This document shows, piece after piece, positions 6,638-7,018 of a DNA stretch of 64,000 nt. Position 1 is the first letter of the stretch. Every line of letters starts with the position of its first letter. The stretch lies in the NCBI RefSeq assembly GCF_000026545.1, contig NC_011601.1; one strand, written 5' to 3'. Origin of the DNA: Escherichia coli O127:H6 str. E2348/69. GTDB taxonomy: Bacteria > Pseudomonadota > Gammaproteobacteria > Enterobacterales > Enterobacteriaceae. Both the position numbers and the translations under genes were made by a program. A model generated the notes under the pieces. That model was not told where the DNA came from. It was given only the letters and a program-made list of their open reading frames with translations, and made no database searches.

Positions 6638-6914
6638 AAGTGCGCACTGAATTGACTCAACCGTTTGTTACCCGTTGATTGCGCAGATCCTGTATTCGGC
6701 CTACGCGAGGGCGCAGGCCGAATCAGATGCCTTAGCATCACCATCCGGTGGCAGGACGTTGTTTTTAGAATTAGCCCAGGTGTCGCTGTGTTGTCAGAAT
6801 ATGAGTCAAAACGTGCGAGGTGGATTGCGCTATAGAGAAATCTTTTATCGCCTCTAATTAAGATGAGTTTTTTTCATCTTCCCTGATTTTTCCTCACCAT
6901 CATTGGTTATTTTT

Positions 6915-6985
6915 CGGTTGACGCCCTTCGGCTTTTCCTTCATCTTTACATCTGGACGTCTAAACGGATAGATGTGCACAACACA
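6915..6985 (+). promoter_or_regulatory. metF promoter region with MetJ operator (met-box repeats)
   Basis: TTGACG at 6918-6923 and an AGACGTCT-like met box (GGACGTCTA at 6954-6962) followed by a related repeat, about 40-100 bp upstream of metF. Assigned by known metF regulation. Confidence 0.45.
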
Positions 6986-7018
6986 ACATATAACGATAAG
7001 CGATTGATGAGGTAAGGT

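Follow-up and report, generated by a model that had tools for sequence, protein, structure and literature searches.

The operators of the LysR-type regulator MetR in the met regulon (metE/metR, metH, glyA, metA, metF) share a 15-bp form with a T-N11-A core, lie upstream of methionine-pathway promoters with MetJ boxes and are conserved across Enterobacteriaceae. The published MetR consensus reads ATGAA-N5-TTCAT, and metF is among the conserved targets predicted for MetR (PMC4239095). The core of this consensus is TGAA-N5-TTCA. Binding of MetR at the E. coli metF promoter was detected by DAP-seq with an enrichment of 476 vs 25 for metA, and metR knockdown raises metF promoter activity about 2-fold (log2 fold change +1.1; reporter about 124,000 vs 61,000) (PMC10505187). 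The gene is also stated to have five met boxes (PMC3274233). According to this DAP-seq and knockdown literature, MetR binds within the metF promoter and represses metF. MetR regulation of Salmonella metF was reportedly the subject of the work of Cowan et al. in 1993. A full-text literature search for site sequences returned unrelated papers only.

Two other kinds of described elements are close to the locus considered here. Enterobacterial mRNA 3' stem-loops and intrinsic terminators are stable GC-rich hairpins located after a stop codon on the coding strand, and the defining feature of an intrinsic terminator is a U-tract 3' of the stem; the 3' stem-loops block exonucleases at mRNA ends that were processed or Rho-terminated. 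Integrase-borne islands with att direct repeats are strain-variable segments of lower G+C between core genes. The block of genes found between metL and metF has itself been described as “GR 31 (metL..metF)” of B2 ExPEC/APEC strains in a 2026 paper, in which it comprises a Tsx-like channel and three UshA-like nucleotidases within about 7.8 kb (PMC12928451). That paper describes the gene content only; here we add the mapping of the boundary, the candidate MetR box located there and the occurrence of the block core at this locus in other genera.

We analyzed the DNA between the last gene of this block, nucleotidase 3, and metF in a stretch of 64 kb from E. coli E2348/69 (hereafter “the window”; coordinates are positions in it unless stated otherwise). 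A preliminary description of this DNA regarded the spacer as the probable right-hand boundary of an inserted block and proposed that two inverted repeats in it might be a terminator of the nucleotidase gene and/or a junction or attachment remnant. The metL-metF block does resemble integrase-borne islands in being strain-variable, in its lower G+C and in its location between core genes. In contrast to them, it is devoid of flanking repeats, an integrase and a tRNA, it takes the place of about 190 bp of the alternative allele instead of splitting them, and several alternative gene modules fill the same gap in different genera. The reading that we favor, with a probability of about 80%, is a joint one: the AT-rich palindrome of the spacer is the MetR operator of metF at the edge of conserved DNA, and the GC-rich hairpin is a 3' stem-loop of the nucleotidase mRNA.

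Variable and conserved parts of the spacer

The spacer occupies positions 6638-7018. The stop codon of nucleotidase 3 (bifunctional metallophosphatase/5'-nucleotidase; 5084-6637, plus strand) ends at 6637, and the ATG of the co-oriented metF gene (methylenetetrahydrofolate reductase; 7019-7909, plus strand; equivalog NF006950, 604 bits) is at 7019. Upstream of nucleotidase 3 are, in order, a gene of a 374-aa hypothetical protein, two more nucleotidase genes, a Tsx-like channel gene and metL. The 381-bp sequence of the spacer, which was used as a query, is 100% identical to E. coli E2348/69.

A megablast search among 5,426 complete E. coli genomes divides the spacer into two parts with different histories. 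The segment 6869-7018 is present in 5,425 of the genomes. The segment 6638-6868 was found in 1,832 of them, and only in those with nucleotidase 3 adjoining metF. The K-12-type metL-metF gap occurs instead in 3,578 genomes, and about 15 genomes have other gap content, for example, a module of a malI-like gene and a PTS EIICB gene. The full five-gene block is present in 658 of the 1,832 spacer-bearing genomes. The remaining ones carry only the hypothetical gene and nucleotidase 3, and in them the 3' end of the hypothetical gene overlaps the 3' end of metL. Two of the 1,832 spacer and hairpin matches are on plasmid-labelled records, which may be mislabelled chromosomal contigs.

These counts bear out the earlier suggestion that the strain-variable block has its right-hand edge within the spacer between nucleotidase 3 and metF. 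The alignment with a block-free strain, which the preliminary description proposed as a check, places the break at the 7-bp inverted repeat: megablast homology breaks at position 6869, inside the loop of the repeat, and block-bearing and block-free genomes become homologous again from TGA(A/G)-T-run-TCATCTT onwards. In a side-by-side alignment all E. coli arrangements converge at ...TGA(A/G)-T/A-run-TTCA(T/A)CTTCCCTGATTTTTCCTCACC. Since 6869-7018 is nearly universal and 6638-6868 is confined to the 1,832 genomes, the boundary between variable and conserved DNA is located within the spacer, at about 6860.

The variable part (6638-6859, plus strand; 1,832 of the 5,426 genomes) is 3' untranslated DNA of nucleotidase 3, and its only clearly non-random feature is the GC-rich stem-loop. 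No homology was found between this part and the K-12-type metL-metF gap, the DNA between nucleotidase 3 and metF of Citrobacter and Klebsiella, or the malI/PTS module. Because it has no homology to the modules that occupy this position elsewhere, it is not a recognizable gene remnant. Taken as a whole, the variable spacer folds no better than its shuffles (z -1.3), and a weak repeat in it (I4, 6641-6651 / 6675-6685) was dismissed (z -1.1). A scan of 6400-7200 against Rfam at E<=10 revealed no family: the scores of YenS (12 bits; gathering score 80) and TeloSII_ncR30 (11 bits; gathering score 86) are at the chance level. Comparison of E2348/69 with EBJ003 shows 11 differences in 6638-6691 and complete identity in 6692-6766 (75 nt, including the hairpin), a pattern that could reflect either a recombination mosaic or local constraint.

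The 7-bp palindrome and the metF control region

Both inverted repeats of the preliminary description exist, and their actual positions differ by about 10 nt from those given in it (about 6706-6730 for the GC-rich repeat and about 6850-6870 for the AT-rich one). The AT-rich repeat is a perfect one, AAGATGA / TCATCTT, at 6860-6866 and 6874-6880, with a 7-nt loop and 21 bp overall. The core of this palindrome, ATGAGTTTTTTTCAT (ATGAG-N5-TTCAT, 6863-6877), coincides with ATGAA-N5-TTCAT in 9 of the 10 specified bases, i.e., has 1 mismatch. A motif of this kind is not rare: with at most one mismatch to ATGAANNNNNTTCAT, 2.4 occurrences are expected per 64 kb, and 1 was found in the 64-kb window. The significance of the palindrome comes only from the conservation of its position across species.

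We scanned the surroundings of metF in one genome per species, which gave 80 Enterobacteriaceae loci. The best match to ATGAA-N5-TTCAT (8-10 of 10 bases) is located 154-164 bp upstream of the metF ATG in 78 of the 80 species, and the commonest distance among these 78 is 156 bp. The exceptions are a locus with too little upstream DNA (L043) and a locus with only a 6/10 match at -142 (L071). The palindrome is kept regardless of whether the upstream neighbor is metL, nucleotidase 3, a LysR-type gene or a PTS gene. Block-free E. coli of the K-12 type has CTGAAGTTTTTTCAT at the same place. Its left half-site is CTGAA, and the allele of EBJ003 has the half-sites ATGAG/TTCAA. The sequence just to the left of the palindrome is module-specific across genera: it is CATC(A/C)TGAA in direct metL neighbors and CAGATGAA in the malI/PTS type.

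With the 78 sequences anchored on the palindrome, the columns before offset -4 each carry about 0 bits of information, and TG and TCA reach 2 bits; since the best motif match served as the anchor, conservation is overestimated at the positions of the motif itself. The second conserved element and the -35 hexamer (see below) were not used for anchoring, and thus their conservation in register with the palindrome validates the alignment.

The preliminary description, which saw in the 7-bp repeat a junction scar or attachment remnant and, alternatively, a terminator, also noted that the presence of the same sequences in island-free strains would make them native metF upstream DNA. They are present there: both half-sites are found at this position in block-free E. 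coli and in 78 of the 80 species. Both proposals are therefore abandoned for the 7-bp repeat.

The right part of the spacer, from about 6860 to 7018, is the native metF control region, conserved family-wide, with the palindrome as its outermost element. The proposed order of elements is the MetR palindrome, a second half-palindrome 20 bp downstream, the -35 hexamer and five MetJ boxes. The palindrome (6860-6880), a candidate distal MetR-type operator of metF, forms the left edge of this region. The second conserved site, CTGATTTTTCCTCAC (TGA-N7-TCA), occupies 6883-6897, and its center is 20 bp promoter-proximal of that of the first. Its consensus, CTGA..ATTCCTCAC, carries 1.2-2.0 bits across the 78 species and is in register with the first site. 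By analogy with the architecture of sites of LysR-type regulators, in which a less symmetric second site is placed some two helical turns closer to the promoter, it is a candidate for the second contact site of MetR. TTGACG at 6918-6923 (plus strand), read from the sequence and conserved as gTTGACg, is the probable -35 hexamer of the metF promoter; a promoter consensus scan of 6300-7300 called no promoter-like site, and we infer the -10 element and the transcription start. The MetJ operator (6938-6977) is conserved as well. It consists of five tandem 8-bp met boxes in the register of GGACGTCT at 6954-6961, on which a met-box palindrome at 6941-6974 (repeat I1) is centered.

Positional conservation and the literature together point to 6863-6877 as the MetR recognition site and to 6883-6897 as the promoter-proximal one. 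MetR most likely binds these two sites, centered about 84 and about 64 bp upstream of the inferred start, and its binding would lower metF transcription about 2-fold. The probable MetR sites upstream of metF can thus be given to the base in the E2348/69 allele, and their counterpart in the K-12-type allele is CTGAAGTTTTTTCAT. As a candidate MetR operator, the palindrome belongs to an already known class of regulatory sites, and metF is among the known targets of MetR. The palindrome shares with the other MetR operators the 15-bp form and the T-N11-A core, the location upstream of a methionine-pathway promoter with MetJ boxes and the conservation across Enterobacteriaceae. It differs from the consensus in the left half-site of E2348/69, which is ATGAG instead of ATGAA, and in the extension of the palindrome to 7 bp per arm (AAGATGA/TCATCTT) in this strain; unlike the other MetR operators, it is centered some 84 bp before the inferred start. 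A perfect TGAA-N5-TTCA core in the control region of metR-metE in K-12 serves as a consistency check only.

The last of these differences leaves some room for the suggestion that the palindrome is an operator of another regulator, or an UP-like or architectural element, and that MetR binds elsewhere in the metF promoter: at about -84, it is further upstream than the typical LysR-type recognition site, which is at about -65. We regard this suggestion as quite improbable. The MetR consensus is matched both in the half-sites and in their spacing in 78 species, and the window has no other match with at most one mismatch; therefore, there is none elsewhere in the metF control region. In addition, the binding of MetR to the metF promoter region in DAP-seq is very strong (PMC10505187).

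Under the MetR operator reading, the boundary between variable and conserved DNA coincides with the palindrome because this is where selection on metF regulation stops, and not because a mobile element integrated there. What looks like the boundary of an “island” can thus simply mark the start of purifying selection on the promoter of a neighboring gene. At the level of annotation this would be a correction: the palindrome at the edge of the B2-type block is predicted to be a regulator site of a core gene rather than the scar of a mobile element.

In block-free genomes RefSeq annotates a 44-aa “hypothetical protein” (WP_000660586.1; 3941-4075 of locus L002, minus strand) antisense across the candidate MetR box and the distal metF control region. 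This is likely a spurious ORF call.

The GC-rich hairpin downstream of nucleotidase 3

The GC-rich hairpin occupies 6694-6723 on the plus strand and starts 57 nt past the stop codon of nucleotidase 3. It has a 13-bp stem with one A.C mismatch and a 4-nt loop; the arms, ATTCGGCCTACGC (6694-6706) and GCGCAGGCCGAAT (6711-6723), are of 13 nt each and are 92% complementary. The folding energy of the RNA is -24.6 kcal/mol for the plus strand (z -4.4) and -28.0 kcal/mol for the minus strand (z -5.5). This stability is above chance: among 200 shuffled sequences there was none as stable.

Four diverged alleles, those of E2348/69, EBJ003, MEI003 and SCPM-O-B-8794 (about 85% identical), all retain the stem. 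The changes between the alleles include one double change from C-G to U-A in the stem, and the A.C mismatch is replaced by an A-U pair in two alleles; the other changes are confined to the loop or to the loop-closing pair. As a result, 94% of stem cells in the four alleles pair, vs 21-37% with a slid register. A covariation shuffle control was not significant (194 of 500 shuffles were as good), and with four sequences and one double change the covariation is anecdotal. Hairpins that are GC-rich and non-homologous to that of E. coli follow the stop codon of nucleotidase 3 in Salmonella arizonae, Citrobacter, Klebsiella, Phytobacter and Kosakonia, some of them with a T-run (Citrobacter, Klebsiella) and some without.

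These features are those of enterobacterial mRNA 3' stem-loops: a stable GC-rich structure after the stop codon on the coding strand, maintained across alleles and with analogous hairpins after the orthologous gene in other genera. The E. coli hairpin is located 57 nt past the stop codon, compared with about 10 nt or less for the nucleotidase-3 hairpins of the other genera. Unlike a canonical intrinsic terminator, it has no U-tract: no such tract was found 3' of the stem, where the tail is TCAGATGCCTTAG (UCAGAUGCCUUAG). The hairpin is probably a 3'-end or stabilizing stem-loop of the nucleotidase mRNA and possibly a weak terminator. In that role it would most likely form in the nucleotidase mRNA, acting as a barrier to 3' exonucleases or as a weak terminator lacking a U-tract, and would limit read-through into the co-oriented metF gene.

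A stronger version, in which one or both hairpins of the spacer are Rho-independent terminators of nucleotidase 3, seems to us unlikely. It draws on the location of both hairpins downstream of the stop codon on the coding strand, on the high stability of the GC-rich one and on the T-run that accompanies the hairpin after nucleotidase 3 in Citrobacter and Klebsiella. However, the GC-rich stem of E. coli is followed by TCAGATGCCTTAG and so fails the defining feature of an intrinsic terminator, and a terminator scan of 6300-7300 found 0 terminator-like sites. The scan is a conservative one, since it also missed a hairpin with a T-run before the MetR box of the K-12-type allele. As for the AT-rich 7-bp repeat, it makes a weak hairpin (-6.9 kcal/mol, z -2.5) with the U-run in its loop, and it is conserved even where there is no co-oriented gene upstream. 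No canonical terminator was found between nucleotidase 3 and metF in the E2348/69 allele. Of the proposal in the preliminary description that the GC-rich hairpin terminates the nucleotidase transcript, the position and the strand survive, both being weakly in favor of a 3' structure; the missing U-tract and the silence of the scan speak against termination.

The hairpin is present in a single copy. A BLAST search with word size 11 and E<=10 finds it once in each of the 1,832 spacer-bearing genomes and in no other genome, and within the 64-kb window it has 1 match at up to 3 mismatches. Being GC-rich, imperfectly palindromic and situated in intergenic DNA 3' of a gene, it might suggest a dispersed REP/BIME-like element that arose by repeat proliferation and whose function lies in the DNA itself or in a general stabilization of mRNA. 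We take CGGCCTAC within the hairpin to resemble REP tails, and the palindrome of the K-12-type gap also seems to us, by eye, to be REP-like. Because of its single copy per genome, the hairpin is not a dispersed REP-like repeat, and we consider this origin extremely improbable. Nor is it an insertion scar, as was also proposed earlier: it is a stem-loop that occurs once per genome, where the neighboring nucleotidase gene ends.

The metL-metF gap across Enterobacteriaceae

The metL-metF gap is multi-allelic across Enterobacteriaceae, and all its forms end at the same base upstream of metF. Most genera have direct adjacency of metL and metF, with about 220 bp between them. Other forms contain the hypothetical gene with nucleotidase 3; this pair together with a carboxymuconolactone-decarboxylase-like gene (assigned by eye from its 158-aa translation) and a LysR-type gene in the Citrobacter freundii group; a malI-like gene with a PTS EIICB gene in Kluyvera, Escherichia sp. 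E1V33 and a few E. coli; combinations of modules in Klebsiella spallanzanii; and the five genes of the B2 form.

The K-12-type gap contains its own hairpin (3951-3990 of locus L002, -14.3 kcal/mol, z -4.6), which is followed by TTTTCTTTTT and ends about 5 nt before the candidate MetR box. It is presumably the metBL terminator.

On the left side, the sequences of the E2348/69 block and of the K-12 type diverge right after the stop codon of metL (TAG instead of TAA). Because of this divergence and of the convergence at the right end, the E2348/69 and K-12 alleles are alternative fillings of the gap rather than the products of a simple insertion. A perfect 13-bp hairpin flanked by A- and T-runs is located at the left end, at 1602-1632 of locus L001, about 750 nt before window position 1 (-24.3 kcal/mol, z -6.7). 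It resembles a bidirectional terminator, with metL on one side and the convergent Tsx-like gene on the other.

The core of the block, i.e., the hypothetical gene and nucleotidase 3, occupies the metL-metF locus in Salmonella enterica arizonae, Citrobacter, Klebsiella, Phytobacter and Kosakonia, and its divergence between genera (88-92% amino-acid identity) is close to that of KatG. The block is thus not a recent insertion, since its core is found at the same locus in at least five other genera. The G+C content is 39-44% in the part with the Tsx-like gene and nucleotidases 1-2, 47-49% in the part with the hypothetical gene and nucleotidase 3, and 52-59% in the flanks. The ends of the block, compared within flanks of +/-100 nt, share one 8-mer, with 0.75 expected by chance, and no word of 9 nt or longer in either direct or inverted orientation. 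Neither an integrase nor a transposase was found in the block, whose genes are those of a Tsx-like channel, three nucleotidases and one hypothetical protein, and no tRNA was found at it.

These data weigh heavily on the supposition that the 7-bp repeat is a scar or attachment remnant left by integration of the nucleotidase block. The megablast break in the loop of the repeat and the low G+C of the block (39-49% vs 52-59%) are what such an origin would leave, but block-free E. coli and 78 of the 80 species have both half-sites equally far from metF, the ends of the block share nothing beyond the one 8-mer, integrase, transposase and tRNA were not found, and the core resides at the same locus in five other genera with KatG-like divergence. 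We therefore consider an integration scar very improbable, and the “inserted block” with an attachment remnant of the preliminary description does not hold. The block may have resided here for long and been lost repeatedly, or it may have been exchanged through recombination in the conserved flanks; the data fit either history but not a recent site-specific insertion. The pair of the hypothetical gene and nucleotidase 3 would be an old, patchily retained occupant of the locus and not an acquisition specific to an E. coli pathotype.

A bolder extension of the MetR operator reading is that the metL-metF gap is an old multi-allelic cassette site, the right border of which is pinned by the MetR operator of metF, and that read-through from the nucleotidase gene might bypass or modulate the control by MetJ and MetR. 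In the E. coli, S. enterica arizonae and Phytobacter alleles, nucleotidase 3 is co-oriented with metF and directly abuts it. Since the two genes are separated only by a hairpin without a U-tract, read-through into metF is possible. If it occurred, it would couple nucleotide scavenging with one-carbon supply. We consider this extension speculative and give it little credence.

Elsewhere in the window, a copy of IS1397, an insertion sequence of the IS3 family, is located between yijF and gldA in E2348/69 (12258-13603) and is absent from this place in EBJ003.

The 374-aa hypothetical protein (3827-4951, minus strand) is encoded divergently from nucleotidase 3, and its sole family match is a sub-threshold InsA/IS1-type zinc ribbon. 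It evolves much faster than its neighbor, with about 60% amino-acid identity between genera vs 88-92% for nucleotidase 3. When E2348/69 is compared with EBJ003, most of the gene shows a DNA identity of only about 55-80% in 100-nt windows. This protein may be a regulator of the nucleotidase gene.
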